Counted from the first letter of the stretch, positions 907 through 19,295 are shown. The stretch is DNA of 64,000 nucleotides from a virus (IMGVR_UViG_3300032224_001411:2650-66649), one strand, 5' to 3'. Notes: generated by a model not told the origin, from the letters alone. Program-made: numbers and translations.

Positions 907-1149
907 ATGTATAGTATACACGGTGGTGCGGGGGGTTGGGGGCGAAGCCCCTCCCGAGCGTAGCGAGGGTCTCCGCGCTGCCCGATCGGAGCGAAGCGAC
1001 GCCGGGCCGCGCGGTTGGGTTTGGGTTTGGTTTTGGGTTTACGGTTTTCTACGGTTTTTACGGTTTTTCCACACGCACGATTCCGCTACGCTGCGCGTTC
1101 GTGTAGCGAAGCGAAACGGATCGCGCCGCGTGGCCGGAATCGAAATAGG

Positions 1150-1183
1150 GCGAGCCCGACAACCTTTCGGCTGTCGGGCTCGC
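1150..1183 (-). terminator. Terminator hairpin (first of a series)
   Basis: GCGAGCCCGACAGCC-GAAA-GGTTGTCGGGCTCGC on the minus strand; similar hairpins follow cassette ORFs at 1689-1722, 2365-2393, 3068-3093, 3744-3767, 4469-4491, 4939-4970, 5647-5671, 6311-6343, 7447-7479, 8129-8154, 9493-9516, 10131-10158, 12021-12056. Confidence 0.8.
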
Positions 1184-1195
1184 GGTGGACACAGA

Positions 1196-1501
1196 CTATT
1201 CCTCGTCTGCCTGTTCGGGGTCGTAGTCAACCATTTTGAGAAAGGCAACATTGTCTCGAGAGCATCCGTAACATTCAAACTCAAATGTCACTTCGCCATC
1301 AAAGTAGCACATCCGACCTTTTTGCTGCTCAAGCACTCCGTAGTCGGGACATCCTTCGTGAGCACATTCCTCGTCACGGAACACTTCGTATGAACCGTTC
1401 GGAATTTCCTCGGGTGGCTCGCCAAAGACAGCAACCTGAATTTCTGCCTCTAACGCTGGGTCGGTGTGTTCCTGCGGTCCGAGCAATTCGGGGTCTATCA
1501 T
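1196..1501 (-). CDS. Hypothetical acidic Cys-containing protein (cassette gene)
   Basis: ORF between promoter 1561 and terminator 1150; RBS GAAAGGA. Confidence 0.75.
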   Translation of the reverse strand: MIDPELLGPQEHTDPALEAEIQVAVFGEPPEEIPNGSYEVFRDEECAHEGCPDYGVLEQQKGRMCYFDGEVTFEFECYGCSRDNVAFLKMVDYDPEQADEE

Positions 1502-1727
1502 GTCCGTTCCTTTCGTTGGGTACTGGTGGACATCTCCATTTTCGCATACAGGACATTCGTTGTCAAATGAGTCGGGCGGGCGCTTTGTTTTTCGAAGTGC
1601 GGGGTTTTGCCGTGCTGCCCGTCGGAGCGAAGCGACGCCGGGCCGCGCGGTTGGGTTTTACGGTTTTCTACGGTCTTACACAAATAGGGCGAGCCCGACA
1701 ACCTTTCGGCTGTCGGGCTCGCAGTGG

Positions 1728-2069
1728 TTACTTGCTGAAGAAACGGCGTTTGCTAATCGCCTCTGGTTCGTAGTAGTAATACTCATCTACCAATTGGACA
1801 CACTCTCGGCAAAGAGTGTGGGGCGGTTCGACATTACGGTACTCACACTCTCCGCAAGGGCGTAGGTGTCGCGTTCCGACATTGTAACCGAACAACGCTG
1901 ATGCCAAGATGACGCTTCCAAAGATGGAAATAATATCAAGGGTTTTGTCGTAGGTCGGGTACATTTCCGCGTAGTGTTTCATACTTACTGCGATTGCTAA
2001 TGCGAATATGTATAAGACTGTCGCAAATGCGGCGCGGTATCCTCTTGATTGGTCACTAGTTCCGAACAT
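1728..2069 (-). CDS. Hypothetical membrane protein with C-terminal CxxC...CxxC motif
   Basis: Two hydrophobic segments, then PCGEC...LCREC; RBS AGGAG. Confidence 0.75.
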   Translation of the reverse strand: MFGTSDQSRGYRAAFATVLYIFALAIAVSMKHYAEMYPTYDKTLDIISIFGSVILASALFGYNVGTRHLRPCGECEYRNVEPPHTLCRECVQLVDEYYYYEPEAISKRRFFSK

Positions 2070-2399
2070 TGTTTTCTCCTATTTCTTTAGGTAACCAGAT
2101 TGGATTATTGCCAACAAATACCTTTCGGCGTTTGGTGGTATTGGTGTTTTTGTGGACATTTTCCACTCCTCTCTGTCATCTCTATCCTCTCAAACTCAAG
2201 GTTCTTTGTCAAATGAGTCGGGCGTGTTTTGTTTTTCGAAGTTGGTTTTGAGGGGGCGCAGCCCCTCCCGAGCGTAGCGAGGGCGGCACTGGCCGGTACG
2301 CGCGAAGCGCGATCCGGCAGTGCGGGTTTTGGGGTTTATGGTTTTACGGTTTTAGACGCGCGAAAGCCCGACAACCTTTTGGGTTGTCGGGCTGTCGGG

Positions 2400-2900
2400 C
2401 TATCCCCAGGTGACTGCCACTCCGCGTGACTTGGCATCCTCACAGACGGTACGAAGGTCGGCAAACTTCTGGTCGAAGTATCCCGCGGGGTGTCCACCTT
2501 CGATGATACGCGGACCGAATGACGGGTGCGAGATATCAACGGCGGGGCGTCCATCGTCCTCGGGCATCAAGGCGATTACCGTAAGTACTCGTCCGAGCAT
2601 GTCCTCGGCTGGTAGTGCGCCGACACAGGCATCCGAGAAATCGTTTTCCGTGGTTAGGATGCCGAGCATCTCCAAGAGCTCCGCGGCGTTTCCGTTGGCG
2701 AGTTGGCACTCGGGCGCAGTTCCCTCAACGGCTGCTCCGTAGGGGTCGCAGTATTCATCGCCACATGCGGCAACGAAACGCTGGGAGTGGTGGACTGCCG
2801 AAGTGTAGTCGGGGAAACGCATTGGCGTGGTCTTGCCGCAGATACAGGTGACGGAGTGCTGGCGCGTGTTCCAGTCAGCGGGAGAGAATGTTACAGACAT
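2400..2900 (-). CDS. Hypothetical protein (cassette gene)
   Basis: Start moved to MSVTFSPADW behind RBS GAAAGGA; the ORF-track extension runs through the promoter. Confidence 0.75.
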   Translation of the reverse strand: MSVTFSPADWNTRQHSVTCICGKTTPMRFPDYTSAVHHSQRFVAACGDEYCDPYGAAVEGTAPECQLANGNAAELLEMLGILTTENDFSDACVGALPAEDMLGRVLTVIALMPEDDGRPAVDISHPSFGPRIIEGGHPAGYFDQKFADLRTVCEDAKSRGVAVTWG

Positions 2901-3104
2901 GGTGAGTTCCTTTCGGTTGTTGCGGGTAGATATCTCAATTCTGGCAGACGAAACTATCTCTGTCAAATCGCGGCAGGGCGGGGGTTTGTTTTTCTTGGGT
3001 TGGGTTAGGGGTTCTCCGCGTAGCGGGGGTTTTGTTTTTGGGTTTACGGTTTTACCACGCGCCAAAAAGCCCCAGCGCGTTAGCGCCGGGGCTTTCAGTT
3101 GAGG

Positions 3105-3287
3105 CTACTTGGTGCGTATTGAGTAGTAGCCTTTGGATTTGAGAGCGCGAACATACTCGCGTCCTCGGTGGTTCAAGCGTGGTCGGTCTTTCAAGAGATA
3201 CCGCATATTTATTACCAACAGCGTGGTTGCGATACCCGTCAAGAAACTCACGATAAATCCGAGAATGATTAGCGTGTTATTGTCCAC
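3105..3287 (-). CDS. Small single-TM membrane protein
   Basis: Hydrophobic N-terminus, basic tail; RBS GAAAGGA. Confidence 0.65.
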   Translation of the reverse strand: MDNNTLIILGFIVSFLTGIATTLLVINMRYLLKDRPRLNHRGREYVRALKSKGYYSIRTK

Positions 3288-3344
3288 GATAGTCCTTTCG
3301 TCTTTTGGGTGGGCAGTTTTTGACGTACCCAGGTCTGGGAATGG

Positions 3345-3566
3345 CTAGATAACAACCATTTTGGTATCAAACTTGATACCGCGCTGACGAAGTTCCGTCA
3401 GGACATCGAGTGCTTGGTACTCACTCAGGTAGACAAACTTACCTTTTGTGAGTATCGTGCGCCAGCGTGACGGCGAACCATTGGAGATTGCCTTCAACTG
3501 CTTCGCTTCGATTTCCAGCAACCAAGCGGTGTGCTTGGCATTGGTGAAGTTACGGAGAATTACCAT
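3345..3566 (-). CDS. Hypothetical protein
   Basis: ORF downstream of promoter 3640. Confidence 0.65.
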   Translation of the reverse strand: MVILRNFTNAKHTAWLLEIEAKQLKAISNGSPSRWRTILTKGKFVYLSEYQALDVLTELRQRGIKFDTKMVVI

Positions 3567-3775
3567 ACTTCATTTCCTCTCGATTTTGAGGTTTCCCCTT
3601 TCGGGCTGATACTTCAATAATCTCATATAAAAACAATTATGTCAAGTAAGACAGGCGGGCTGGTTTTTGTTTTTAGTAGTTTGGTTTTCCTCCGCGCAGC
3701 GGGGGGTTTCAAGGTTTTGGTTTTACGGTTTTACCGCACACCAAGCCCGACCCTTTCGGGTCGGGCTGGCGTTGG

Positions 3776-3970
3776 TTAGATAGTAATTGGTTCGTTGTTG
3801 ATTTTTCCAGTAGCGCAAGCAAGGAGATATTCCGTAACCATTTTTCTTGCGTTATCAACGACAATAAAGTTTGCGCCTATTCCCTCACCAAAAATACCTT
3901 CTTCGGTAATTGCTGTTGTGATAAGCGAGTGCGCTAGTTTCAGTATTTCATAATCTGATACTATTTCCAT
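3776..3970 (-). CDS. Hypothetical protein
   Basis: RBS GAGAGGA; followed by terminator 3744-3767. Confidence 0.7.
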   Translation of the reverse strand: MEIVSDYEILKLAHSLITTAITEEGIFGEGIGANFIVVDNARKMVTEYLLACATGKINNEPITI

Positions 3971-4054
3971 TATTTCCTCTCGGTTGGGTTGTTAGTCAGT
4001 TTTGCGACTTGACTAGGTCGGGTTGGTCACTCGGTGACGCTGAAGAAGACTACG

Positions 4055-4162
4055 CTAATCTTGTTCTTCGTCTTGTTTTCCACAAACTACGCACTCTCTC
4101 AGATGAGGCTCTCCACACTCATCGCAGGTTAGCCAGTGATTCCATTCGTGCTTGTGTCCCAT
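4055..4162 (-). CDS. 35-aa Zn-ribbon microprotein
   Basis: MGHKHEWNHWLTCDECGEPHLRECVVCGKQDEEQD; start overlaps the upstream stop (TAATG). Confidence 0.6.
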   Translation of the reverse strand: MGHKHEWNHWLTCDECGEPHLRECVVCGKQDEEQD

Positions 4163-4293
4163 TAGTCTTCCTCTTCGATTAGTTGGACAATGCTTGCGAT
4201 ATCTCCGACCTCTTCGAGTACCACGCTCAATCCTTCAGCGTCAATATCAGGGTCATCAACTCTCATAATGATTTGGAAAAAAGGCACTTCCAT
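4162..4293 (-). CDS. Small acidic protein
   Basis: Start moved downstream of promoter 4351 and its leader hairpin. Confidence 0.6.
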   Translation of the reverse strand: MEVPFFQIIMRVDDPDIDAEGLSVVLEEVGDIASIVQLIEEED

Positions 4294-4504
4294 TCCTTTC
4301 GTTTTATCGGGTTGTTCCGATACCCTAATACTGTCAGATTTCCGCACCTAAGTCAAGTGAGGTGGCGGGGGGTTTTGTTTTTATTTGATTTTTGGGTTTG
4401 GGGTTCCACCGCGCAGCGGGGTTTTGGGTTTTCAAGGTTTTGGGTTTTACGGTTTTACCGCACACCAAACCCCCACCCTTTCGGGTAGGGGCTCGGCGTT
4501 GCGG

Positions 4505-4777
4505 TCACTCGGTAACTCCAACATATCGAGCATAAATGGTAGCGCGACCTCTGCCCAGCCCATTGGCTCGTGATACTGCCTCGAAAGAGCCAGCAGGGGT
4601 AAACCCTTTGACTTGACCTCGTCGGATAAATATAGCCATATTGCCTTGCCCATCGCGCCTAACGATTGCCCACTTCCCTGGGTTTTGTCGGAGTACCTTT
4701 GCGATATCAACATACACTCCTTTTGGATAGGCTCTTGATTTCGCAGGAGGTGGCTCTTCCCATTCGATTTCTTCCAT
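4505..4777 (-). CDS. Hypothetical protein (phage-type small basic domain)
   Basis: IEWEEPP...IAKVLRQNPGKWA...FEAVSR...IYARYVG; has its own promoter and terminator. Confidence 0.75.
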   Translation of the reverse strand: MEEIEWEEPPPAKSRAYPKGVYVDIAKVLRQNPGKWAIVRRDGQGNMAIFIRRGQVKGFTPAGSFEAVSRANGLGRGRATIYARYVGVTE

Positions 4778-4980
4778 GGTGTTCCTTTCTGTTGTTATAA
4801 CACTATTCTGTCAGATATTCGCATATAAGTCAAATGGCGGGCGGGGGTTTGTTTTTCTTTGATTTTTGGGTTTGGGGGTTTCTCCGCGCAGCGGGGTTTT
4901 CAGGGTTTTGGTTTTACGGTTTTCCGCGCAGAAATAGGGACTGCCCCAACCCTTTCGGGTCGGGGCAGTCGGTGAGTGGA

Positions 4981-5331
4981 TTAGGACGGCGAGCCAGCGT
5001 GGAGAATGTTGTCAACCAATTCCGCAACCTGCTCGTCAGTCAGTCCGAGAGTTTCACCCTCATCATCCGCGCCACCCGTGATGATAGCGTTTCCGACGAT
5101 AATGTCGATACCCGAACCGAATGCCGAAGTGAACAATTTAGTTGCGTAATCGTTCACAGGAAGTCCGTCCATCTTGCCTTCCTCGTTCACCCAGAGCGTC
5201 AGACCGCTTGGAAGCGTGACCGCTTCAATCATTCCGCCGACCGCACGAGAGAGCGTCGCGTACGACACAAACTCGTTCGTGTCCTCCTCAACCTGGATTG
5301 TGTTGTTTGTTTTGAGTACCAGAGCCTTCAC
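4981..5331 (-). CDS. DUF3846-like protein
   Basis: VGGMIEAV...LWVNEEGK..GLPVN..AT...DIIVGNAIITG pattern typical of DUF3846. Confidence 0.75.
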   Translation of the reverse strand: MKALVLKTNNTIQVEEDTNEFVSYATLSRAVGGMIEAVTLPSGLTLWVNEEGKMDGLPVNDYATKLFTSAFGSGIDIIVGNAIITGGADDEGETLGLTDEQVAELVDNILHAGSPS

Positions 5332-5676
5332 TTTCGTTCCTTCCATTTTTGTCGGATTGTTCCGATACTCTAATACTGCCATAAGACGGGCATCGAGTCA
5401 AGTGAGAGGGGGCGGGGGGTTTGTTTTTTCTTTGATTTTTTGATTTTCACCGCGTAGCGGTGGGTTTCCGCCGAGCTGAGTATCTCTTCGATGCCGTGCG
5501 AGAAGGATTCTCCGCGAAGCGCACCCGTAGGGGCGTAGCCCCGAAGGGCACCGCATAGGTTCGAGCGAAGCGAGATCCAATGCGGGGGGTTTTCAAGGTT
5601 TTGGGTTTATGGTTTTTACGGTTTTTACGATTTTAGGCGCGAGAAATCCCCTACCCTTTCGGGTAGGGGACTCGGG

Positions 5677-6114
5677 TCACTCGTAGTTGACTACGAGAGG
5701 CATTGCGGTCTGCCACAGCCAGAGATTGCTGTCAAGACGGTCACCGAAAATTCGTACCCAATCGGCTAGGTCAACCCATTCGTCGGTGGCGAATGTTGCG
5801 AGCATATCCTTGTGGATTTCGACCGGTCGGGCTTGGCTCATTCCGCCATTCGCGTAAAGTGGAACGGAAACAATACGGCTATCCGCATCACTCTGCCAAC
5901 CGACTCCCTCTGTTCCGATAATGGCTACTCGGGGATTTCCCCAAGGGTCTTTCTCAGAAAGTTCGGTGAACACCAATGGCTCGACTATACAATCGTCAAG
6001 ACCAGTAAACTGCCCGTAAGTCAGTTCGAGGATTTTGTGAATGTGTTTGGTCAACCGTTCGCTGTCAATCACTCGCGCTCGATAGCCTTTGGTGCGTTTT
6101 TCATACCTGTCCAC
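5677..6114 (-). CDS. Hypothetical protein (cassette gene)
   Basis: GTG start behind RBS CGGAG; has its own promoter and terminator. Confidence 0.7.
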   Translation of the reverse strand: MDRYEKRTKGYRARVIDSERLTKHIHKILELTYGQFTGLDDCIVEPLVFTELSEKDPWGNPRVAIIGTEGVGWQSDADSRIVSVPLYANGGMSQARPVEIHKDMLATFATDEWVDLADWVRIFGDRLDSNLWLWQTAMPLVVNYE

Positions 6115-6348
6115 GATTTCTCCGTTTCGTGTTTTGGTCGGGTTGTTCCGACATCTAAATACTCTCATCTCTAAGGAACATTGTCAAGTGCGGCGGGCGG
6201 GGGGTTTGTTTTTTCGATGTTTGGGTTTTCGCTCCTGCCGACCTGAGCGCAGCGAAGATCGGCCGGGGGCGGGGTTCACGGTTTTGGGTTTTACGGTTTT
6301 CCACAAACGCCAAATACCCAGACCACCTGGGTCTGGGTATTTGGGTTG

Positions 6349-6483
6349 TCACTCTCCGTTTTCGCACCAACCACAGAGATAATCTCCGCCATAAGGATTG
6401 CCGATGAATGTTCCGTGCTTACAATAGAAATCTGGAACGTTCAGGTCATCTTCGTCAAAGAGTGGGTCGCTACTGGTGGTCAC
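6349..6483 (-). CDS. 44-aa Cys/His microprotein
   Basis: MTTSSDPLFDEDDLNVPDFYCKHGTFIGNPYGGDYLCGWCENGE; start overlaps the upstream stop (GTGA). Confidence 0.6.
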   Translation of the reverse strand: MTTSSDPLFDEDDLNVPDFYCKHGTFIGNPYGGDYLCGWCENGE

Positions 6484-6683
6484 TTTACCGTCACCCATTC
6501 CATTGCGGTACGGAGTAAGTGGTCGTAATCACCTGCGGTGCTTTCGGTGAAGTAGGCATCAACTTCCGACTTCTCAACACCTGCTCGTTTGAGTGCTTTC
6601 TGGACTGTGCCAAGAATGGTAAAGGCGTTTCCGTCAAGTCCAGTCAGTTGGACTACGACTTCGGGATATTTGGGTTCAGACAT
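6480..6683 (-). CDS. Small conserved-looking hypothetical protein
   Basis: VQLTGLDGNAFTILG...AGDYDHLL, a pattern recalled from phage/plasmid small proteins. Confidence 0.75.
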   Translation of the reverse strand: MSEPKYPEVVVQLTGLDGNAFTILGTVQKALKRAGVEKSEVDAYFTESTAGDYDHLLRTAMEWVTVK

Positions 6684-6944
6684 TATTTCTCCATTTCTTT
6701 GTCTGTCGGATTGTTCCGATACCTCAATACTCGCATAGTTCACATTTTTTGTCAAGTGAGGGGCGGGAGGATTTGTTTTTCTGGGTTTGCTTTGGGGTTA
6801 GGGGCGCAGCCCCTCACCGCGCAGCGGTCTCCGCGTTGCTCCGGTGCGCGAAGCGCAACCGGGCCACGCGGGTTTTACGGTTTTTACGGTTTTACCCCGT
6901 GGGGAGTCAGTTTTGCGACTTGACTAGGTCGGTAGGGCTTCTAC

Positions 6945-7070
6945 TTAGTTCCAGTAATTGGCTTCGATTTCAGCATAAATTGCCTCTTGTTCCGCTTGGT
7001 ACTGTTCTTCAGTCATTGAACAGTCGCTAGGCGTTTCGTGTCCACAACAAGGAAAGTCTTCACACGCCAT
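6945..7070 (-). CDS. 41-aa Cys-rich acidic microprotein (CEDFPCCGH)
   Basis: MACEDFPCCGHETPSDCSMTEEQYQAEQEAIYAEIEANYWN; coupled by TGATG. Confidence 0.6.
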   Translation of the reverse strand: MACEDFPCCGHETPSDCSMTEEQYQAEQEAIYAEIEANYWN

Positions 7071-7249
7071 CAGTTTTTGTCTTCCACAAAGTATCCGATG
7101 ACGACTTCTTCATCTGTTGATGACATCTTGTTGATAATCCGCAACACTTCCGCGTTTTGCGGTTCATCGGGATTGGCAACAATTTCGTCAATTCGTTCGG
7201 AATTGAACAGACTGTCCAAGTCCTTTGGGTTGTTCCAGTCGAATGACAT
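7070..7249 (-). CDS. 59-aa acidic hypothetical protein
   Basis: MSFDWNNPKDLDSLFNSERIDEIV...; RBS CGGAG; below the ORF-track cutoff. Confidence 0.65.
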   Translation of the reverse strand: MSFDWNNPKDLDSLFNSERIDEIVANPDEPQNAEVLRIINKMSSTDEEVVIGYFVEDKN

Positions 7250-7484
7250 TATTTCTCCGTTTCTGTCTGTGGCTTGGGAGTTCCCTTGCCTATATCCAGT
7301 CTTTCACCTATCCGCACGAATGTCAAGTAGGGGGTGGGCGGGGGTTTATTTTTCGCAGTTGGGGTTAGGGGCGCAGCCCCTCACCGCGCAGCGGTTCACC
7401 CGAGCGTAGCGAGGGGCTTTTTGGTTTTTACGGTTTTGCCTGCGGGCGACTGCCCACAACCTTTCGGCTATGGGCAGTCGGCGG

Positions 7485-7898
7485 TTACTCCTCCCGAGTG
7501 TCGATTACTACAACAAACGGTGCGCCGAGTTCATCGTGCGATGAACGAACGACAGTCAATTCTTTGTCGTCAAGAGTGAAACGAAGTATCCAAGACGAAT
7601 TGATTGAGAGAGTATCAACCAAGTCTTTCGCTGAAACGCTGGCGTATCCTGAAACTTTGTTCCAATTCATTGCCTCGCTAGAAACGATAATTCGGCTATC
7701 ACGGTCGGCGTTGTTACGCGCCAGCCATTCGTCAAGGACAAACTCATCGAAGACTGCGAGTTCTTCTTCGTAACATTCGTGGCAGTAGTCGCTGGGAATG
7801 GGGTCGCCATTCTCGTCAACCATCTCCTCGCCTGTTTCTTCGTCAAACTTCGTACAAACGCAGTCGTTTGTCAGAGTGAATGTCTGTTTCTCGGTCAC
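7485..7898 (-). CDS. Hypothetical acidic protein
   Basis: GTG start behind AAGGAG; has its own promoter and terminator. Confidence 0.7.
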   Translation of the reverse strand: MTEKQTFTLTNDCVCTKFDEETGEEMVDENGDPIPSDYCHECYEEELAVFDEFVLDEWLARNNADRDSRIIVSSEAMNWNKVSGYASVSAKDLVDTLSINSSWILRFTLDDKELTVVRSSHDELGAPFVVVIDTREE

Positions 7899-8165
7899 GG
7901 TATTCTCCTTTGTGAGATTGTTGATTTGCCTCACATACTAACTCTATAATAAACGGAACATTTAGTCAAGTCAGGGTCGGGGCGGGGTTTGTTTTTTCTT
8001 TGAGGGTTTTAGGGGGCGTAGCCCCCGTCACCCGAAGGGTCTCCGTGCTGTCCGACGCGCGTAGCGCGATCGGCCGCACGGCAGTTTTGATTTTGGTTTT
8101 ATGGTTTTTATGGTTTTAGACGCGCCAACGCGCCTACCCTTTTGGATAGGCGCGAGGCGAGAGGA

Positions 8166-8480
8166 CTACGCGGTGCGAATGTAGTCGTAGGGCGTTACGC
8201 GGAGAGTTTCGGCGTAAGCGACAGGAAACTTCTCTTGTAACATTTTACCGTCAAACGAGGAGTTTTTGCTGGACACGAGAGAGAAAGCCTTTGTACCGTT
8301 CACAGTCGCAACGGTGGCAGTTCCGAGTGCTTCTCGCAGAATTGCTTCTGCGGTAGCCTTGCGCTCTTTTGCCGACTTTTCATCTGCTTTCGCCTGAATG
8401 AAGTCTGCGAGTGCCTGACGGACTTTCTTGTTTTGAGGTTTGATTTCGACAACCTCGGTGGTTTCGGCGTTGTTAGCCAT
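8166..8480 (-). CDS. Hypothetical coiled-coil protein, paralog of 13965-14303
   Basis: Shares REALG.AT..T.NG...FPVAY..T.RVT.YD.I with the 13965 ORF. Confidence 0.8.
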   Translation of the reverse strand: MANNAETTEVVEIKPQNKKVRQALADFIQAKADEKSAKERKATAEAILREALGTATVATVNGTKAFSLVSSKNSSFDGKMLQEKFPVAYAETLRVTPYDYIRTA

Positions 8481-11255: not shown

Positions 11256-11351
11256 TTTTTCTCCTATCGAGGATTGTTGTTTTGCCCCCGATATAATAAG
11301 AATACGCCCCCACCAAACCGAAGTCAAGTGGGGGCGTTTTTTTTTTCTTTG

Positions 11352-11836: not shown

Positions 11837-12126
11837 TTTATTTCCTTTCGTTAGAAGTTATATTTAGTATCTCATTTATAGCAACCAATGTCAAGTCAAG
11901 GGGTGTCGGGGCGGTTTCTTTTTTCAAAGAAACGGTTTTCACCGCGTAGCGGTCACCGCGAAGCGGGGTTTTGATTTTAGGGTTTTACGGTTTTTACGGT
12001 TTTTGCCCCCAGAAATGGGGAAAGCCCCTACAAGCCTAACACTTGTAGGGGACTTTCCAGCCGAGGAAAGTAGGGGAAACCTCGGCTACTGGTGGTGGGG
12101 AAACGGAAATAAACCCACCACCAAGA

Positions 12127-12516
12127 TTAGACTACTTCGGGTTCCTCAACCTTTGACGGTGCTACTATCCGAGTTGCGACAGCAGTTGCCCAGAACAAGT
12201 CGTGACCGATAACCTCTGCTTCGATTTCGACATTTGTACCGACCCTATCATCAGTTGCCCAGTCGCGCACACGCAACCGACCTGAAACGATAATACGGTC
12301 ACCTTTTGAGAGCGAGGGAACGCAGTTGATAGCAAGTTGCTTGTATGCGGTAATGGTGTACCAGTTGGTCGAACTGTCCACCCATTTCAGAGTTGTTTTG
12401 TCGAAACGGCGTTGTGGTGAAGCGAGTCGGAACGAGGTGATAGCAAGCCCCTCGCTGGTTACAATGTGGCGCGGTGTTGTGGCGATAAGCCCTGTGACTG
12501 TGATTATGTCAGACAC
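12127..12516 (-). CDS. ssb: Single-stranded DNA-binding protein (actinobacterial type, short tail)
   Basis: ITVTG.IAT.P...FRLAS..RRFD...W....TNWYT...LA.N...SL.KGDRIIV.GRL..R.W....VEIEA..IGHDL OB-fold pattern. Confidence 0.9.
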   Translation of the reverse strand: MSDIITVTGLIATTPRHIVTSEGLAITSFRLASPQRRFDKTTLKWVDSSTNWYTITAYKQLAINCVPSLSKGDRIIVSGRLRVRDWATDDRVGTNVEIEAEVIGHDLFWATAVATRIVAPSKVEEPEVV

Positions 12517-12549
12517 TATTTCTCCTTTGTTTAGGTTGGTATGATAAAT

Positions 12550-12825
12550 CTATCGGGTGAGAGATATATTGTCAAGTCGGGCGGGGCTGTTTTGTTTTTC
12601 GTTGGAAGTTTGTAGTTTCCACCCTGCCAGCGTAACAATGTCATAGACAGTCACACCAAGACCGTCTGCGATACTTTCTAGCACTTCGCTAGAAACTTCG
12701 TTGTGACCTCGTTCGATTTCCGAGAGGTGAGCGATAGAAACATACTTACTCACATCAACGAGGTTCTTGCGCTTGTCCGTTCGGAGTTCGCGCAAGACCT
12801 CGCCAAGAGCCTCACGATACAGCAT
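12550..12825 (-). CDS. XRE-family HTH regulator, ClgR-like
   Basis: REALGEVLRELR...L.DVS..VS..HLSEIERG..EVSSEVL..I.D.LGV closely follows the actinobacterial ClgR pattern. Confidence 0.75.
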   Translation of the reverse strand: MLYREALGEVLRELRTDKRKNLVDVSKYVSIAHLSEIERGHNEVSSEVLESIADGLGVTVYDIVTLAGWKLQTSNEKQNSPARLDNISLTR

Positions 12826-13211
12826 TAGTAAACCACATCAGGTTCACAGCGCAGGGTTGGTTTGGGGACAGAGCCTTTGGTTTCTACTTCGTAGGTTTTA
12901 CCCTCGTATTCGTAGTGACCATAGTCAGCGTTGATATAAACGGTGGGGCTGTCAATCCAACCTTCGTCACTTCCAGTTTCGGCAGTATAGATACCAAACG
13001 ATACTTCACCGTCATACGCACCGAGATTGACCGAGAACTCGTGGAACAGTTGAGCCGTTAGATACGAGGGGTCACCGACCCGACCAGTCCGAGCCAAGAC
13101 ATTATGAACAGCCTGAACATTGTCCGTTCCTGACCAATGACCGTAGAAGCGGATTTCATTGTCGTTATCAAACGAGTTTGAGCGAATTACGATAAGCGAG
13201 CGATTTCCCAT
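12825..13211 (-). CDS. Hypothetical protein with C-terminal EPDVVY
   Basis: Start moved to MGNRSLIVI behind GAAAGGA; Y-x-HW motif. Confidence 0.75.
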   Translation of the reverse strand: MGNRSLIVIRSNSFDNDNEIRFYGHWSGTDNVQAVHNVLARTGRVGDPSYLTAQLFHEFSVNLGAYDGEVSFGIYTAETGSDEGWIDSPTVYINADYGHYEYEGKTYEVETKGSVPKPTLRCEPDVVY

Positions 13212-13267
13212 TTTTGGTTTCCTTTCGTTGGGGGTACTGCCAAGTCTATATTCGTGCGAAGTTCGTG

Positions 13268-13519
13268 TCAAGTTGGAGTTACTAGGTCGGGTTCTATTTT
13301 TCCTAGTGGCTTGTAACAAATGTCACCTGTCCGAATTACAAACTGCTTACCGCAACATTGACAAGTGAAGTGAACCATTGGTTCACTATTGATTGAGGCT
13401 GTGTAGAGGTTTTTTATTTCGATAATCCGAGGTGCGTTATGTTGTGCCAACTCGTAGCGGGAATATCCTGTGACTGCTGTTACTTCGGCATATTCAGTCG
13501 CTGACCGTATCTCCGTCAT
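13268..13519 (-). CDS. Hypothetical protein
   Basis: Overlaps the upstream ORF end; contains CQCC and EPDLV near the C-terminus. Confidence 0.5.
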   Translation of the reverse strand: MTEIRSATEYAEVTAVTGYSRYELAQHNAPRIIEIKNLYTASINSEPMVHFTCQCCGKQFVIRTGDICYKPLGKIEPDLVTPT

Positions 13520-13847
13520 AGACTACATCACTCTCCTCGCCACAATCGGGGCAGGTCACCTCACCGTCAACACTTTTTGAGCCGTAGTGATACTCCCAGC
13601 AATCCTCACAACGGAACTCGCCAATAACGCTGTGAACCGCGTCTTGCCAGTCCTCGTTGATTTGTTCCCAAGTATAATCACCAATGGTAAAGTTTTCTAT
13701 GACTTGTGCTTGGTGGGCTTCTGTTGCGGTAAAGCCGTTATTTTGGTCATCACCGACTTCGCTACCAGTCCAGTAAAGAAACATAATTGGTTCGTCTGGG
13801 TTCATAGCGGAAAGCGTTTTGATTACATCTGCGACTGTTTGTGCCAT
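13494..13847 (-). CDS. Hypothetical protein with C-terminal Zn ribbon
   Basis: MAQTVADVIKTL...CEDC...CPDC. Confidence 0.7.
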   Translation of the reverse strand: MAQTVADVIKTLSAMNPDEPIMFLYWTGSEVGDDQNNGFTATEAHQAQVIENFTIGDYTWEQINEDWQDAVHSVIGEFRCEDCWEYHYGSKSVDGEVTCPDCGEESDVVYDGDTVSD

Positions 13848-13964
13848 TTTTTTTCCTTTCGACAAGTCTAATCCTATACCATTTGGAGAGGCGAGGCACT
13901 TCCCGAGGGGGGTGAGAAGTGCCTCGCGTGGCAGGGGAAATGGAAGAAACCCTGCCCTACCTAC

Positions 13965-14303
13965 CTACGCCTTTGTGGTAGGGGCTTGGATTGTCGTGAT
14001 GAAGTCGTATTCAGTCACGCGCTTGGTGGCTTCGTAGGCAACAGGAAAGTCAATTTCCAGAGCCTTGCTGTCCACAGTGGTTCGCTTGCGGAAAGCAAGC
14101 GAGAGAACCTGAAAGCCGTTGATTGTTCCAACGGTGGCTTCACCAAGAGCCTCGCGGATTTCTTTTTCCGCTTGCGCTTTGACTTCCTCGGCTTCTTTGA
14201 TGATTTGCTTGGCTTCGACAAATGCCGTGAGAGCCTTACGAGCCTTTGCTTTTAGTTCGACCTTATCGGTCTGTGCTTCGGTTTTGGTTTTGGTGCTAGT
14301 CAT
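13965..14303 (-). CDS. Hypothetical coiled-coil protein, paralog of 8166-8480
   Basis: See 8166; start moved downstream of promoter 14379. Confidence 0.8.
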   Translation of the reverse strand: MTSTKTKTEAQTDKVELKAKARKALTAFVEAKQIIKEAEEVKAQAEKEIREALGEATVGTINGFQVLSLAFRKRTTVDSKALEIDFPVAYEATKRVTEYDFITTIQAPTTKA

Positions 14304-14385
14304 TTCGACTACTTCCCTTCTGTCGTTTTGTCTGGTCGGGTTCGACCTATTAGAAATACTACGCTTGTTGAGAACTCTTGTCAAG

Positions 14386-14619
14386 TCAGTAAATCAAATC
14401 GGGTTCTTGGGCTGTGGGGCTTGGGGTACGAGCATAGACAAACTCCTCAATCTCATCTACATATACATCTCCACCAGACCAGTCACCAAACTCCTCGTCT
14501 GCGTGGTGTCCGTTGTCAAGGAGTTCGTTGCCAAGTTCCTTGGCTTCATCCTCATTGTCAGCCTCAACTTCCACCGAGTACCAGACATAGGCACATTTCT
14601 GAACGCGATACTTTGCCAT
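14386..14619 (-). CDS. Small acidic protein (VEAxxEDEA motif, DpnD/PcfM-like), ends EPDLIY
   Basis: YRV...VEVEADNEDEA; paralog of the next ORF. Confidence 0.75.
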   Translation of the reverse strand: MAKYRVQKCAYVWYSVEVEADNEDEAKELGNELLDNGHHADEEFGDWSGGDVYVDEIEEFVYARTPSPTAQEPDLIY

Positions 14620-14849
14620 TAGTACACCAAGTCTGGTTCTTCTTTGGGGGTTTTGTTTGCTGGGTCGGTGGCGTTCTCGTCAATCAAGTCGGTTTCGCCC
14701 TCATCCCAGTATTCCCCAAAGTCACTATCATCCTCGTCACCGCTGGCAATCCTCTCAACGCCAATGTCATACGCTTCATCCTCGCTGTCAGCGTACACAT
14801 CTACATAGTGGTAACTCGTTGAGCCGAGTGTAATTCGATACAATCCCAT
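14619..14849 (-). CDS. Small acidic protein (DpnD/PcfM-like), ends EPDLVY
   Basis: YRI...VDVYADSEDEA; RBS GAAAGGA. Confidence 0.75.
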   Translation of the reverse strand: MGLYRITLGSTSYHYVDVYADSEDEAYDIGVERIASGDEDDSDFGEYWDEGETDLIDENATDPANKTPKEEPDLVY

Positions 14850-14868
14850 TGTCTTTCCTTTCGTCAGC

Positions 14869-15600
14869 CTAGTAAACTAGGTCGGGTTCTTGTGCGCTGG
14901 GGTCAATGATACCGTTTTCCTTGTTCCAGCGCAAGATTTCCTCGGCTCGGTCGGGGCAGTCCTCGTACCAGTCGTTCGGTTCGTCAGCCCACGCGCAGTT
15001 ACAACTATCCTCGCGGTCACGCTCAACATAGTCAGCGTGGCTGTCGGGGATATCCCACTCCTCGTCAATGACAATGGAACGCTCTCCATTATCATCAGGG
15101 TCGCTGGCAGACCACTCCGCGCCAAAGCCTTGTTCTTCTTCCCAGTTGAGGGTCATATCCAACGAGGGAAACTTGTTCATTAGAGTTCTTAGAAACTCCT
15201 CGGGTGGTGACCAAGGAGTTTGGAACTGAACCTGAAAGAAAGAATTACTGTCCTCGTTCTCCTCTGTCCAGACATAGACTTCGGAACAATCCCATTTACA
15301 ACCCCACTCTGACAAGTTCCAGTTGTACCAGTTGTATTGAGTATTGCCAACTTCCTCGCCATTTTCCCAGCCTTTTTTGCCATAGTATTCCTCGATCTTG
15401 TCGGCAGGTGGAGAAACAAACGCGAGGAAAGAGAACCCACCATTATCGTCATAGCGGAGTTCAGTCCGTTCGCCCTTGTCGTTTTCGACCCAGCCCTGCG
15501 GAACATCTTTTCCAACGAGCGACAGAAACTCAATCATCTCGGGATTATCCGATTTTCCATTGGAACTTACGGTGAGAGTGTTGCTTACCCAGTTTGGCAT
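14869..15600 (-). CDS. DUF1281/Api92-like ferredoxin-fold protein, ends EPDLVY
   Basis: MPNW..N.L...WYNW....WG.KW...F.TPWSPP motifs. Confidence 0.75.
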   Translation of the reverse strand: MPNWVSNTLTVSSNGKSDNPEMIEFLSLVGKDVPQGWVENDKGERTELRYDDNGGFSFLAFVSPPADKIEEYYGKKGWENGEEVGNTQYNWYNWNLSEWGCKWDCSEVYVWTEENEDSNSFFQVQFQTPWSPPEEFLRTLMNKFPSLDMTLNWEEEQGFGAEWSASDPDDNGERSIVIDEEWDIPDSHADYVERDREDSCNCAWADEPNDWYEDCPDRAEEILRWNKENGIIDPSAQEPDLVY

Positions 15601-15710
15601 TTTCGTTGTCCTTTCGTTTGCCTGTTACTGATACTACGCTCGTTCGTTGTTCGTGTCAAGTTGAGGTTGGTGGCAGGGAGAAAGGTGAGAAACGCCCTGC
15701 CACCAAGTTT

Positions 15711-17522
15711 CTATGAGTTCTTGCGACCAATCCGCGACAGAACTTCTGCGCCAGCAGTTCCAATCAGAACTGCCGACTTCTCAATCTCGTCAGCGTTCAG
15801 TTTTACGACCTGACCATTCGTGCCAGCGAGGTAGGGGTCAATGATGTTGGTGTAATTATCGAAAGTCAGCCAGAGAACCGCCACGCCTTTTTTCTCACAC
15901 TCCTGAACCCAAGCCCTTGCCCTTTTGCTTTCCTCGTTCGTGTATTGACCGTCAGAAACGACCACGAGCATTTTTGCGCCCTGACTGTCCAGCAGAGTGA
16001 GGTGGCTGTCCAGAGCGCGGAACGCTTGGTCAAACTTCTCTGTGCCGTCTGGGGCAGACCACACGCGAACCTCGTCAAGTTTCTCTCCAAGTCGAAGTGT
16101 CGGGAATACCCCCGAGCCGTAATAGACCATAGCAGTCCGAGCCTGAACGCGCCGACCTGCGTTGGCGAGAACCCACGCTGTCGTTGCCATAGGGTTCATA
16201 GCCATACCCATTGACCCCGATATATCTACCATTACGCCAATCGTCAGAGTTGGCTCGTCTGTGTGCTTACGAGTTTTGGCTTCCCACGCTTCGACTGGCG
16301 TGAATACGCCCTTGCTCTCCAAAGCCTTTGCCTGAACAAGAGAGCGAGTTCGCAACCGACCAGCAGGGAGAACCGAGCGAACTGTGGTCACATCACGCTC
16401 ACGATACTTTGCCTTTTCCAGAAGTTGCCCGACCTTGACCGAGGCTACGCGCTCGGCAGAAGTTGGTTTACGAGTTTCCACGAGCGTAGAGCCAGAGCCA
16501 TTAGTTCCCTGCTCACCAGTTGATTTCGCAAAGACCTTGCCCTGCTCAACCTTGCCCTGCTGTCGGCGTTTGCCGTCAGCGTTGCGTTCTTTCGCTTCGT
16601 CAGCCCACTTCTCGCTCTGCTCACGCTGGGAGAGGCTGTCGTTGGCTCGGAATGAGGTTTCGTCTGCGCTTTCTGCGATTGCTTCTGCGATTGCTTTGGC
16701 AAGAGCCTTGCCCATTCCCTCGCCCTCACCCTCGCTGGGTTCTCCACCCTCGCCCTCGCCCTCACCCTTTTCCTTTTCGCGTTCGGAAACAAGTTGTTCC
16801 CACTCACGCGCCAGAGCGTACAGAGGTTCTGGGTTCTTGTGTGCTGTGTAGTTTTGAGCCTTACGCCAGATAGCGCGGAGTTGGTCATAGAGTTCTTGAC
16901 CGAGGTTATCCACCGCAAGGGCAATTACATCTGCCACATCTCGCTTGTCCAGAACCCCAGCGTCTATTCGCGCACCGACCAGCGCACCGACCTGCGCGAA
17001 AGCGCGAGTTCCCGATAGTTTGGAAAGTGTTTCCTCGTCAAGTTCGCCCAGCACGATTTCCATAGCGGAAGCGCGGAGAAAGTCACGATTGTCGGGAAAG
17101 GTCAGAACGCCAAGAGCCTCAATTCGACTTTCCTCTAACAAGTGAAGTGCCTTGTTCTCGCTCTCGGAAAGTTCCTTGCTTGCCTTTTCCAAATCCCAAA
17201 GAGTGAACCGAGCGTGTAGTGCTTCGTGGAGAATTGCCCCAGTTGCTTTTGGGAACTCGTACTGCTCGTCACGATTGTTGAGGTCACCGACCCACTTCGG
17301 GTCAGCGATACCAAATGCGTTCTTGGCGTGGATTTCGATTTCAGCCAAGCGAGGGTCAAACAGAGCGATTGAGGTTTTACCGCTTTTGAGGTCACCCCCG
17401 AGGTACACCACCAAATCATTTCGTTCTGCCCAGTTGTTTACCAGTTGCCCGACCTGCGAACCTACCGCAAGCCATTCCGAGGGAGTGTGCTTCACTCCAC
17501 TTGTGTTTCCAAAGTGCGACAT
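15711..17522 (-). CDS. VWA-domain protein (CobT-like partner of MoxR AAA+), with N-terminal HExxH
   Basis: MIDAS VMVDISGSM and VVVSDG; HEALH motif; EG-rich acidic linker. Confidence 0.85.
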   Translation of the reverse strand: MSHFGNTSGVKHTPSEWLAVGSQVGQLVNNWAERNDLVVYLGGDLKSGKTSIALFDPRLAEIEIHAKNAFGIADPKWVGDLNNRDEQYEFPKATGAILHEALHARFTLWDLEKASKELSESENKALHLLEESRIEALGVLTFPDNRDFLRASAMEIVLGELDEETLSKLSGTRAFAQVGALVGARIDAGVLDKRDVADVIALAVDNLGQELYDQLRAIWRKAQNYTAHKNPEPLYALAREWEQLVSEREKEKGEGEGEGGEPSEGEGEGMGKALAKAIAEAIAESADETSFRANDSLSQREQSEKWADEAKERNADGKRRQQGKVEQGKVFAKSTGEQGTNGSGSTLVETRKPTSAERVASVKVGQLLEKAKYRERDVTTVRSVLPAGRLRTRSLVQAKALESKGVFTPVEAWEAKTRKHTDEPTLTIGVMVDISGSMGMAMNPMATTAWVLANAGRRVQARTAMVYYGSGVFPTLRLGEKLDEVRVWSAPDGTEKFDQAFRALDSHLTLLDSQGAKMLVVVSDGQYTNEESKRARAWVQECEKKGVAVLWLTFDNYTNIIDPYLAGTNGQVVKLNADEIEKSAVLIGTAGAEVLSRIGRKNS

Positions 17523-17653
17523 TATTTTCACCTTTCGTTGTCGTTGCTTCGATTGTATGTCCAGACCCCCACTCTTGTCAAATGAGAGAGTGGGGCAGGT
17601 AGCCACCATAACTACCTGCCCCGACCTGCTAGGGGTACAGAAAGGACAAGACC

Positions 17654-18697
17654 CTAGATTTTAGCAGGTACACATTCCTCGCCAAAGACCCGACTAAATA
17701 CTTCGACCACAACAGGGCGGTCATTTTCGGGTGACGAGGCAATTAGGTTTTCGATTGCGAACTTTGTACCAAAGGTGTTGGCGAGGTTGCGGAAAGCAAG
17801 CAGTTCTCGGAACTGTGGTGACCACGAGATTTCTCCTGACTGTTGCTTCTTGGAGAGGTTTTGAGCGCAGGTCACCGCAGTAGCAGGTACGCCCAACTTC
17901 TTTGCCAAAGCCCAGTCAGTTGTCATTTCTACCTGCGCCACAAAGCGCGAGAGCAGAGCCTCTGACAGTCGAACGCCAACAGCGTTGGGGTTCGTAGCAC
18001 CAACGACATAGAAGCCGTCTTTTGCCTTGATTGTGCCACGCTCGGGGTTCTGCGTAATGGTCAGTTCTCGTCTGCCGTCAATCAGTCCATAGACCACCGA
18101 GAGAACTTTGGGGTCAATCAGACCAATCTCGTCAATGAGGAGAACCTTGCCCTGCTCGGCGCAACGAGTGAGTGCGCCGTCAATCCACTCAAAGCCACCC
18201 GAGGGAGTTTGGACATAGCCACCAACGAGGTCAGCGACTTCCGTATCCCCAGAGCCGAGGATTGTTTCCAGTTCCTCACCAAAGGTTGCCTCAACGAGTG
18301 CCGTCTTACCGCACCCTGGCGCACCATAGAACAGAGCGTATTGGCTGGTTTCGCGCAACTTGCGAAGTACCTCAACATCAACATTCTCGGAAGTACCCCA
18401 GTTACGCGAGTAGTAAAGTTCACCATTCGGGCGAGGGTAAGAGGTTTCACCCGATAGGGTTTCTGCTTCCACGATTTTCGCTTTCTTGGTTGTGCCAGTT
18501 CCGCGCTTGGTGAGCGTTCCAGCAATCGGGGTGTGAGCCGAGAGCGTATCGCTGTCAGCGAGGAGTGCGGAGTACCCCTGACCTGCTATCGAAGTCAAGA
18601 GTTCTCCAAGACCCTCATACATTCTATCAGTCGTGGCGATACGCTCTTTTTCTGATAGTGCTTGGAGTTCTATATCTGTAATGGTGTTCGTAGGCAT
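17654..18697 (-). CDS. MoxR/CbbQ-type AAA+ ATPase
   Basis: Walker A GAPGCGKT, Walker B LLIDEI, DLVG..., GATNP, LSEALLSRF. Confidence 0.9.
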   Translation of the reverse strand: MPTNTITDIELQALSEKERIATTDRMYEGLGELLTSIAGQGYSALLADSDTLSAHTPIAGTLTKRGTGTTKKAKIVEAETLSGETSYPRPNGELYYSRNWGTSENVDVEVLRKLRETSQYALFYGAPGCGKTALVEATFGEELETILGSGDTEVADLVGGYVQTPSGGFEWIDGALTRCAEQGKVLLIDEIGLIDPKVLSVVYGLIDGRRELTITQNPERGTIKAKDGFYVVGATNPNAVGVRLSEALLSRFVAQVEMTTDWALAKKLGVPATAVTCAQNLSKKQQSGEISWSPQFRELLAFRNLANTFGTKFAIENLIASSPENDRPVVVEVFSRVFGEECVPAKI

Positions 18698-18712
18698 TTT
18701 GGTTGTCCTTTC

Positions 18713-19216
18713 CTATTCTACGATTTCGGTGATTAGTTCCTCGGGGAAGTTGGCTTCCTTACGAGCGCGACCAATCCTGCGGATTAGTGCTTGTGGTGTG
18801 TTCCAAGAAACGGTGTCAATCAAATCCTCTAACGAGAACTCAATGGCAAGTGGCTTCTCAACTAACGACCACTCGTTATTGTAAAGATTGTTGAGGAGAG
18901 TTGTCAAATCAACAATAGTTTTGTTGGCAAGCGTGAGCGCGTGGTCGGGGTCAGAGAGTTCTTTGATTTCCCCGATACACATATCTTTGCGGATAGCGAC
19001 AACATCTGTGTTCGCTGTCGTGTAGCACCGCCACGGCTTTTTTGGTGACCACGAGGAAATCTGCCTACGCCAAGTAGAAACAGGAACATACTTTCCTTTA
19101 TCGTCAATACCCTCGGGAGTGAGGATAATCTGTGCTGTGTTTACGCCCTTGCGGAACTCCAAGTAGAGTGCCTTGCCAATCAGGTTGGCGTGGTTGGGGA
19201 TTGCTTCATCAGTCAT
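18713..19216 (-). CDS. Hypothetical protein, first gene of the AAA operon
   Basis: RBS GAAAGGA; promoter 19283. Confidence 0.75.
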   Translation of the reverse strand: MTDEAIPNHANLIGKALYLEFRKGVNTAQIILTPEGIDDKGKYVPVSTWRRQISSWSPKKPWRCYTTANTDVVAIRKDMCIGEIKELSDPDHALTLANKTIVDLTTLLNNLYNNEWSLVEKPLAIEFSLEDLIDTVSWNTPQALIRRIGRARKEANFPEELITEIVE

Positions 19217-19295
19217 TGTTTGTCCTTTCGTTTGACTGGTGGATTTTGCTTACAAGTCGAACTTACACTTGTTTGTTGTTCGTGTCAAGTTGAGA

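Follow-up and report, generated by a model that had tools for sequence, protein, structure and literature searches.

Why should a freshwater actinophage set a promoter ahead of every one to three small genes and part the resulting units by long repeated spacers? The locus that raises this question lies between positions 922 and 19288 of a stretch of viral DNA of 64,000 nucleotides (nt), hereafter the window, which corresponds to bases 2650-66649 of the virus contig IMGVR_UViG_3300032224_001411 (66.6 kb; CheckV completeness, 39%). From the sequence of the window, an original prediction had proposed a dedicated system for acquiring, exchanging or co-activating single-gene cassettes. The analysis presented here points to a different answer: the block is probably an early-gene hyperplastic region made of autonomous terminator-promoter cassettes, a counterpart of the promoter-early stem-loop cassettes (PeSLs) of T4-type phages, and its cassettes would be shuffled by homologous recombination at the repeats.

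Promoters, spacers and the early-gene block

Fifteen promoter copies were used to make a profile, which recovered 18 copies of one promoter type (class I) in the whole 66.6-kb record, with E values from 1.7e-16 to 1.4e-6. Fifteen of them are the seeds of the profile and three are new (1594-1529, 2246-2177 and 11351-11289); all lie on the minus strand, from window position 12609 to 1529, and the next-best profile scores were weak (E 0.0067 and 0.016). When the 18 copies were aligned on the −35 element, a common layout was observed, consisting of an A-run, a C-rich block, (c)ac-TTGACA/T, N17, TGn and nAnnAT; the module that had been predicted (an UP-like A-tract, a linker and TTGAC(A/T)-N17 followed by a −10 element) was thus found in all 18 profile copies. 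The A-run begins 20-27 nt upstream of −35 with a C-rich block of 12-17 nt in between, the A-tract lying at about −50 to −62 and the C-rich block between −38 and −49, and the −10 hexamer is constant only at A2 and T6. Four further promoters (class II) are simpler, read CAAC/TGAC-TTGACA-N17-TAGTAT/TAGACT/TAAGTT and have no spacer upstream; they are the spacerless promoters that had been expected to continue to 19.3 kb, the last of them at 19288. Together, 22 promoters were counted within 19 kb, one per one to three genes, where about 23 promoter-ORF (open reading frame) units had been proposed. A generic sigma-70 scan of 600-20000 gave 33 sites, compared with 13.2 ± 3.7 in shuffled sequences. 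Helically phased A-tracts, which would give a planar bend, were ruled out, the spacing of the A-runs having its peaks at 6-9 bp and not at 10-11 bp. Matches to TGTCRGTG, a PafBC-type box, numbered three in the window and none within the array.

The ORFs behind these promoters are small, and each has a GAAAGGA/GGAGA ribosome site. Seventeen units between 11836 and 1196 hold 23 ORFs, with one to three per promoter throughout, as predicted, and the block holds about 35 small genes. Pfam and PHROG gave named functions to few of 31 small ORFs; the families named in the block are SSB (single-strand DNA-binding protein), a helix-turn-helix (HTH) protein, DUF3846 and DUF1281_C.

The spacers between the units span 80-370 bp and are composed, on the transcript strand, of 33% C, 22% G, 29% A and 16% T. 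With at most one mismatch allowed, AAAACCGTAAAA occurs 24 times against 0.68 expected, always on the minus strand and between 1037 and 12003. These copies form the (AAAACCGT)n tracts, with 8-9-mer units, and are spread over exactly 15 spacers, in agreement with the estimate of about 15 full spacers. Folding of the 58-60 nt that follow stop codons (n = 16) gave hairpins at z ≤ −2.95, with stems of 10-16 pairs, in 13 of the 16 segments; the loop is GAAA in nine of the 16, and three fold weakly. This hairpin stands 80-300 nt upstream of the next promoter, neither within it nor adjoining it. The units are self-contained, as had been proposed, in the sense of promoter-ORF-hairpin cassettes, and co-activation is plausible because they have one promoter grammar in common.

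A second class of hairpin is formed around GCGNAGC, which has 49 copies in the window where 20.3 ± 3.8 were expected. Thirty-one of the 49 copies lie on the plus strand within 921-12100, reading GCTNCGC in the transcript, and their N is A, T or C. A spacer contains one to five of these mini-hairpins, 11-15 nt long, between (AAAACCGT)n and the next promoter. Watson-Crick pairs lengthen 22 of the 31 array cores (21 of them by at least two pairs), with stem extensions that vary in their letters (ggg/ccc, cgc/gcg, cacc/ggtg, ttt/aaa); outside the array, only two of 18 copies gain two extra pairs. The repeat tract and the mini-hairpins are associated with a unit's 3' end, because the last spacer (1195-922) has both without a promoter and the promoters at 11327, 10650 and 8551 lack both. 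The tract and hairpin cluster of the original prediction are hence present, but they are tied to the unit that ends and not to the promoter that follows. G-quadruplexes on the G/T-rich strand were ruled out, with only one to three motifs per strand and not one per spacer.

The form of the mini-hairpins bears on an explanation in which they are signals of single-stranded or supercoiled DNA on the template (plus) strand, used for priming by the phage primase-polymerase, as hairpin promoters or as blocks that exclude nucleases and SSB and so protect DNA entering first. All 31 array cores are exactly GCGNAGC on that strand, where a spacer hairpin of the related phage G003 also has its GCGGAGC. In a review, GCGNAGC is described as extraordinarily stable as a DNA mini-hairpin, much less so as RNA, and poorly bound by SSB, and as being used at the G4/St-1 priming origins, in RSF1010 ssiA and in the N4 virion-polymerase promoters (PMC13037366). 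Moreover, the phage encodes a PrimPol-D5 helicase and, in the first unit of the array, an SSB, and the primary terminators carry their GAAA loops on the opposite strand, so that the two hairpin classes differ. Compared with the G4 and N4 elements, the 7-nt core is identical, recurs 31 times on one strand and often has two to four extra pairs; the window clusters, however, are flanked by a terminator on one side and a sigma-type promoter on the other in a double-stranded DNA actinophage, and a matching polymerase was not found. The T7/N4-type polymerase family PF00940 was absent from G000, G004, G005 and DSL-LC01 in our search, which is weak evidence as the control genomes were silent too. Mini-hairpins are also missing in the related phage G001 and in three window units, 9 of the 31 cores have no further stem, the single-stranded state of the spacer DNA is purely assumed, and triloop RNA hairpins working as back-up terminators account for the same sequences. 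We therefore give this explanation little credence. Just as doubtful is the proposal that the spacers are DNA-level landing pads, in which mini-hairpins and (AAAACCGT)n would act on single-stranded or supercoiled, restriction-proofed DNA that enters first, in priming, hairpin-dependent transcription or the exclusion of nuclease and SSB, and would also be preferred seams of exchange; were it true, the array would amount to a cassette platform complete in itself, for which PeSLs offer no described parallel.

The whole array is contained in a block (1000..20000) with all genes on the minus strand, higher G+C and few 4-bp palindromes. Thirteen palindromic 4-mers were counted at 1-9 per 500 bp inside the block and at 24-32 outside it, and the counts shift sharply near 1000 and 20000; in 2-kb bins, the observed-to-expected ratio of the 4-mers is 0.29-0.60 inside and mostly 0.7-1.1 outside. 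Within 600-13000, where 47 copies of each were expected, ACGT was found 5 times, AGCT 4, CATG 5, TGCA 2 and TTAA 3 times. CGCG, GCGC and TCGA are spared by this purge, and CGCG and GCGC, which are mini-hairpin material, are enriched. The GC fraction is 0.48-0.54 in the block compared with 0.38-0.46 across most of 24-46 kb. The syntenic block of the related phage G005 (~3000-19000) is likewise purged; it lies 3-19 kb from the start of a contig with direct terminal repeats, a start that we assume to be possibly arbitrary in the assembly. The purge, the host-type promoters and the small unknown genes together fit DNA that is needed before the phage disarms its host.

A common grammar and a different gene order in relatives

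The window derives from a large freshwater actinophage, as yet uncultured, that has DSL-LC01 and large Microbacterium phages among its relatives. This identity follows from its AAA ATPase (17654-18697), with 74% identity to that of DSL-LC01, an Actinomycetia phage whose 129-kb genome was assembled from lake-metagenome sequence, and 58% to that of Microbacterium phage Pumpernickel, from its primase-helicase, with 66% identity (67% of the length) to DSL-LC01 and 50-54% to large Microbacterium phages, and from the labels of the sequencing runs that hold parts of the window (lake, freshwater or subsurface metagenomes). Relatives of the ATPase are encoded on 191 IMG/VR stretches. Megablast of window 1-20000 against GenBank phages gave zero matches, and scans of viral and metagenome contigs with DNA motifs for close relatives gave single, chance-like matches only. 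No Rfam family was found in window 1-24000 (E ≤ 0.1). Two array ORFs, 6114-5677 and 2900-2400, had no close IMG/VR relative by a pattern method that did not search for distant homologues.

Five related phages with 25-70% protein identity were compared with the window. In four related contigs, the array starts at SSB and ends at an NlpC/P60 gene, as it does in the window. Promoters with the window's layout (A-tract, C-rich block, TTGACN, N17, TGn-nAnnAT, leader hairpin and GGAGA) follow SSB in G001, where there are 14, and in G003, where there are 12, and the consensus of the 44 promoters from the three lineages reads A-tract, C-rich block, (t)acTTGAC, N17, tg and nAnnAT. The core of the C-rich block (CCGCCCCGACCCC-like) recurs in all three lineages. 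The far-upstream part of the spacer is lineage-specific: in G001 it consists of AAATTCAAAATAAAA..AAAAATAAGAA without mini-hairpins, and in G003 of GAAATTGAAATT, a GCGC-TCC-GCGC hairpin (the one that reads GCGGAGC) and then AAACAGAATAA. At the start of the leader, just 3' of −10, six window units have the inverted repeat TCGGAACAAYCCGA (for example at 10616-10633, 6149-6170, 5345-5367 and 4300-4322, minus strand), and the leaders of G001 and G003 have GCGG, an A/C-rich loop and CCGC at the same site. These stems covary across all three lineages (TCGG/CCGA, GCGG/CCGC, GTGG/CCAC), which suggests a stem-loop at the 5' end of the RNA rather than an operator.

G005 and DSL-LC01 carry other repeated promoters at the syntenic place. 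In DSL-LC01 (L208, 15200-36000), GATTCTAAAGATGTTATAATAGAATC recurs at least 23 times in the syntenic small-gene region; it is an extended −10 promoter within an inverted repeat and is followed by the conserved ribosome site ACGACGAAAGGACAA; the words "promoter" and "repeat" have no occurrence in the main text of the DSL-LC01 paper (PMC10611076). The corresponding genes of the soil phage Pumpernickel are arranged in tight operons without spacers. When the window promoter profile was run on sets of 199, 205, 58 and 120 loci, it found nothing better than E 3.5e-4, the weak matches being one in L009 (199-locus set) and one of 30 nt (120-locus set). Full-text searching of the literature brought up no array of this kind from actinobacteriophages.

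Homologues of 11 of the 23 array ORFs were found in the five relatives (tblastn, E ≤ 1e-4), and 12 of the 23 had none. The eight strongly matched ORFs (E < 1e-10) have the rank order 1,8,5,4,7,3,6,2 in G001, with the strand kept in all eight. The flanks are fixed, with SSB at the start and g921 and the NlpC/P60 gene at the end. Content and order of the array hence differ between relatives, in accordance with the proposal that its cassettes are exchanged. Reordering without inversion is what direct-repeat recombination gives, through duplication, loss and excision-reinsertion.

The spacers themselves bear apparent traces of such events, in the form of concerted evolution. Their similarity drops with distance along the array (r = −0.35, only one of 5000 permutations being as low), those of the promoters at 4833, 4356, 3645 and 2966 form an especially similar group of four, and neighbouring spacers have near-identical stretches of 40-45 nt in common. 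Judged from these alignments, the decay and the long common stretches are taken to be the mark of duplication or gene conversion.

As near relatives, lake contigs that are 85-99% alike and come from three studies (four runs) were also aligned to window 1-20000. In these contigs, spacers align where three ORF bodies no longer do. Among the 15 joints shown, seven are long-sided (≥50 letters on a side), and five of these seven are in the array. Three of the five are replacements of an ORF body between flanking spacers that align (5669-6112, 7070-7212 and 1788-2072): in runs X5 and X6, from two studies, 5669-6112, which is ORF 6114-5677 from start to stop, is swapped for 466 other letters, and ORF 7249-7070 has 96 other letters in place of its body in runs X2 and X6. 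The remaining two are a change in a leader (6699-6750) and a 73-nt deletion in a spacer (8615-8689). In run X5, the (AAAACCGT) tract at 6870 is longer by 14 nt, a change in copy number. Some parts of the window are uncovered (2002-4669 in X3; 7338-9338 and 10673-12006 in X5), their cassettes being perhaps missing or merely diverged. Short-sided joints (e.g. 1136->2360, 1601->7367, 2397->1556 and 4456->3060) were left out of the counts of recombinants and circles, and the edges of blastn blocks between G001 and G003 were not used as breakpoints because at ~70% identity edges follow ORF ends.

An alternative is that the repeats are purely regulatory, ensuring strong, insulated and co-regulated early transcription, with shuffling being incidental and unaided by them. 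The positions conserved across the three lineages are indeed the functional ones (A-tract, C block, −35, TG, A2/T6, leader hairpin and ribosome site), the array is headed by an HTH gene, and an A/C-rich, G-poor spacer RNA with tandem hairpins suits the role of an insulator. Regulation alone, however, does not account for neighbouring spacers that are near-identical beyond any motif and lose similarity with distance, for an orientation kept in 8/8 strongly matched ORFs despite complete reordering, or for ORF-sized differences between conserved spacers in near relatives. For these reasons we regard this alternative as rather unlikely.

The same data speak to an integron-like system of dedicated cassette capture, in which the spacer hairpins would be the sites of a site-specific enzyme. 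Similar to integron cassettes, the units are co-oriented, of single-gene size, reordered without inversion, variable in content among relatives and separated by hairpin-forming repeats; the hairpin modules are oriented, their hairpin potential is selected, and the lake contigs contain joints that go back (2397->1556 and 4456->3060). Nevertheless, no integrase or recombinase family (and thus no IntI-type integrase) was found among 33 larger ORFs across the window and 31 small ORFs, which agrees with the remark in the original prediction that no integrase is adjacent. No attC-like sites or attC architecture were seen, as judged by eye only and with no attC model run. Every unit has its own promoter and hairpin, unlike integron cassettes, which are served by a single Pc; the hairpin modules are missing from three units and from G001, whose order differs nonetheless; and the sides of the joints that go back are only 30-34 letters long, within repeats. 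Taken together, these observations make integron-like capture very improbable, and they do not support the dedicated acquisition or exchange system first suggested; the pattern is the one that direct-repeat recombination gives.

The reading that we prefer is therefore that of PeSL-like cassettes shuffled by homologous recombination. Each cassette would consist of a host-type (group-1 sigma) promoter, often a leader stem-loop, a strong ribosome site, one to three small ORFs and a long GC hairpin. The composite spacers would insulate neighbouring units, and (AAAACCGT)n and the mini-hairpins may provide back-up termination, Rho loading on C-rich, G-poor RNA or protection of 3' ends. As direct repeats, the spacers would allow homologous recombination to duplicate, delete, replace or transpose cassettes with their orientation kept, and no dedicated recombinase would be needed.

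Several points weigh against this reading. The −10 hexamers are weak except for A2 and T6. The GC terminator hairpin of the original prediction stands as a fold at 13 of 16 ORF ends, but not as a canonical terminator: the post-stop hairpins mostly have no T tail, and a canonical terminator scan showed no enrichment (22 against 26.9 ± 4.4). No RNA runs holding window 2400-12300 are listed, and promoter use, timing and termination are inferred. Selection for one RNA polymerase or one regulator could alone keep the promoters alike, and the PeSL model does not explain the C-rich block, (AAAACCGT)n or the strict form of GCGNAGC. The five compared relatives are distant, and therefore the permutation could stem from any mechanism acting over a long time. 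As to the near relatives, whose joints come from contigs and not from reads, replaced bodies are similar in length to the originals (466 vs 442 and 282 vs 283 letters) and may therefore be fast-diverging alleles and not different genes. Finally, the remaining 8 joints of the 15 are short-sided (21-38 letters); six of these 8 fall in the array, have repeated spacer or leader sequence at both ends and are maybe assembly artefacts.

Anatomy of the units and further features

All features of the array were located on the minus strand and are described in transcript direction, with −35 positions referring to the first base of the element. The four class II promoters come first. One, CAAC-TTGACA-N17-TAAGTT without spacer, at 19260..19288, stands ahead of ORF 19216-18713; a second, TTGACA-N17-TAGTAT at 15631..15659, has a hairpin before it and stands ahead of ORF 15600-14869 (DUF1281_C). 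The third (TTGACA-N17-TAGTAT, 14356..14384) precedes ORF 14303-13965, and the fourth (TTGACA-N17-TAGACT, 13243..13271) precedes ORF 13211-12825.

Unit 1 (12127..12609) begins with the first class I promoter (−35 at 12575), which overlaps the 3' end of the HTH gene (12825-12550), and contains the SSB gene (12516-12127). Unit 2 (11352..12126) has a full spacer with hairpins, three copies of AAAACCGT at 11975-12003 and mini-hairpins at 11944 and 11958; its promoter (−35 at 11894) is followed by ORFs 11836-11588 and 11606-11352. The spacer of unit 3 (10729..11351) is short, with A-run and C block only, ahead of −35 at 11327 and ORFs 11255-11091 and 11079-10729. In unit 4 (10168..10728), a pseudoknot-like motif (10683-10722; see below) replaces the terminator hairpin, −35 is at 10650, the leader hairpin is TGTCGGAACAATCCGACA and the ORF is 10581-10168. 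The full spacer of unit 5 (9524..10167) has a hairpin, three copies of AAAACCGT at 10092-10120 and four GCGAAGC cores at 10023-10075, followed by −35 at 9993 and ORF 9925-9524. Unit 6 (8918..9523), also with a full spacer, has −35 at 9400 and a leader of ~150 nt before ORF 9220-8918.

The 369-nt spacer of unit 7 (8166..8917) has no (AAAACCGT)n; −35 is at 8551 and the ORF is 8480-8166. Full spacers precede unit 8 (7485..8165; −35 at 7969, ORF 7898-7485) and unit 9 (6945..7484; −35 at 7326, ORFs 7249-7070 and 7070-6945). Unit 10 (6480..6944) has the pseudoknot-like motif at 6895-6934, two copies of AAAACCGT, mini-hairpins, −35 at 6755 and ORF 6683-6480. Unit 11 (5677..6479) has a spacer of 295 nt, −35 at 6187 and ORF 6114-5677, and unit 12 (4981..5676) a spacer of 278 nt with four GCGNAGC cores, −35 at 5401 and ORF 5331-4981 (DUF3846).

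The spacers of units 13 to 18 are all full. Unit 13 (4505..4980) has −35 at 4833 and ORF 4777-4505. Unit 14 (3776..4504; −35 at 4356) holds ORFs 4287-4162, 4162-4055 and 3970-3776, with the pseudoknot-like motif at 3984-4023 between the last two, and unit 15 (3105..3775; −35 at 3645) holds ORFs 3566-3345 and 3287-3105 with the motif at 3300-3339 between them. Unit 16 (2400..3104) has −35 at 2966 and ORF 2900-2400. In unit 17 (1728..2399; −35 at 2212), a possible 26-codon ORF (2159-2079) lies ahead of ORF 2069-1728, and unit 18 (1196..1727) has −35 at 1566 and ORF 1501-1196. The terminal spacer (922..1195) consists of a hairpin, three copies of AAAACCGT (1037-1067) and mini-hairpins, has no A-tract, C-block or TTGACA promoter, and leads directly into ORF 921-682.

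The pseudoknot-like motif, of ~28 nt, reads nnAC-C-TGAGC-AA-GTnn-(n)AAAAC-(T)GCTCA and comprises two interleaved helices. Fifteen copies were found in four phage lineages, on the sense strand every time: besides the four of the window, they are located in L298 (2381-2420, 9114-9153), L299, which is G005 (265-304, 2869-2908, 5348-5387, 6001-6040, 8200-8239), L014 (9656-9695) and L300 (2532-2571, 2640-2679, 6609-6648). The motif is placed after stop codons that have no GAAA hairpin or between co-transcribed ORFs. Its partners pair in 97% of cells compared with 24-35% when they are slid, five of the nine pairs are changed on both sides, and there was zero match to Rfam.

The spacer of unit 7 also contains a cloverleaf-like, tRNA-sized fold (8833-8906, minus strand; z = −2.78) with a 6-bp acceptor-like stem, three arms that include GAGGTTCGAAACCTC and a tail that ends in ACCACCA; no tRNA was called by ARAGORN (8500-9000), and Rfam gave no call. 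The 73-nt deletion of a near relative lies farther downstream in the same spacer. Two paralogous ORFs of ~105-112 aa on the minus strand, 8166-8480 in the array and 13965-14303 upstream of it, match phrog_1956 and the C-terminal part of the RecE-like exonuclease family phrog_434. Adjoining the early block of G005 (L299), at 15264-15655, GGCTCA/CAGGCTCA-type units of 6-14 nt form a long tandem array, accompanied by 15-nt GGTTAGGGCTAATGC repeats. Elsewhere, the window encodes ribonucleotide reductase, ThyX, dUTPase and a collagen-like protein, in addition to PrimPol-D5 helicase (54717-57320) and SSB, as well as a phage transfer-messenger RNA (tag ANAKSAFALAA) at 42974-43305 and a tRNA-Arg(TCT) at 32551-32623, both on the minus strand.

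Known systems and significance

PeSLs of T4-type phages are described as a repeated host sigma-70-type early promoter combined with an A/T-rich stretch and a stem-loop terminator or attenuator (Arbiol et al. 2010, PMC2839356; Comeau et al. 2014, PMC4122927). According to the first of these reports, dozens of them lie upstream of small ORFans in variable regions, where relatives gain, lose and replace the flanked genes; they are compact (~100 bp), with a hairpin that overlaps or adjoins the promoter, their activity and mini-circles have been demonstrated, and PeSL-mediated shuffling by recombination has been described (PMC2839356). The window resembles them in its repeated host sigma-70-type promoters, in the A-rich tract upstream of −35 and in the small ORFans of a variable region. 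It differs in that it belongs to an unrelated actinophage, that the motif is spread over 80-370 bp with a hairpin separate from the promoter, and that only the window has (AAAACCGT)n, GCGNAGC mini-hairpins, a C-rich block, a leader hairpin and the pseudoknot-like motif; in addition, promoter and terminator activity in the window is predicted from sequence. In halovirus HF2, an archaeal virus, intergenic repeats of 29-58 bp act as promoters (PMC8707807), so that a tailed virus there too has repeated promoter-bearing intergenic sequences; the HF2 repeats are short, however, and the opening of the abstract of that work mentions no terminator or hairpin modules.

Wider parallels exist in the blocks of small genes that phages devote to the first steps of infection. 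The host-takeover module of SPO1 and the first-step-transfer DNA of T5 contain small unknown genes under many host-type promoters and terminators, the T5 block being at the genome end that enters first, inside a long terminal repeat. The window has a small-gene block with many host-type promoters as well, and its palindrome purge fits DNA that acts before the host is disarmed; the loss of restriction-type sites, a pre-early feature of the T5 type, is found in the window block and in G005. In contrast to SPO1 and T5, the window promoters vary far less and lie among long spacers that are themselves repeated, and the window is a fragment.

The PeSL idea, in which regulatory repeats are the seams of shuffling, came from T4-type phages with Gram-negative hosts; the array extends it to uncultured freshwater actinophages, an abundant clade where the design is far more regular than that of PeSLs. 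Within this clade, each lineage rewrites its spacer kit and keeps the grammar. The 44 aligned natural promoters, with their leader hairpins and hairpin terminators, constitute a ready set for actinobacterial hosts, and the block of small genes that they belong to in the window is the likeliest place for host-takeover and anti-defence functions in this phage.

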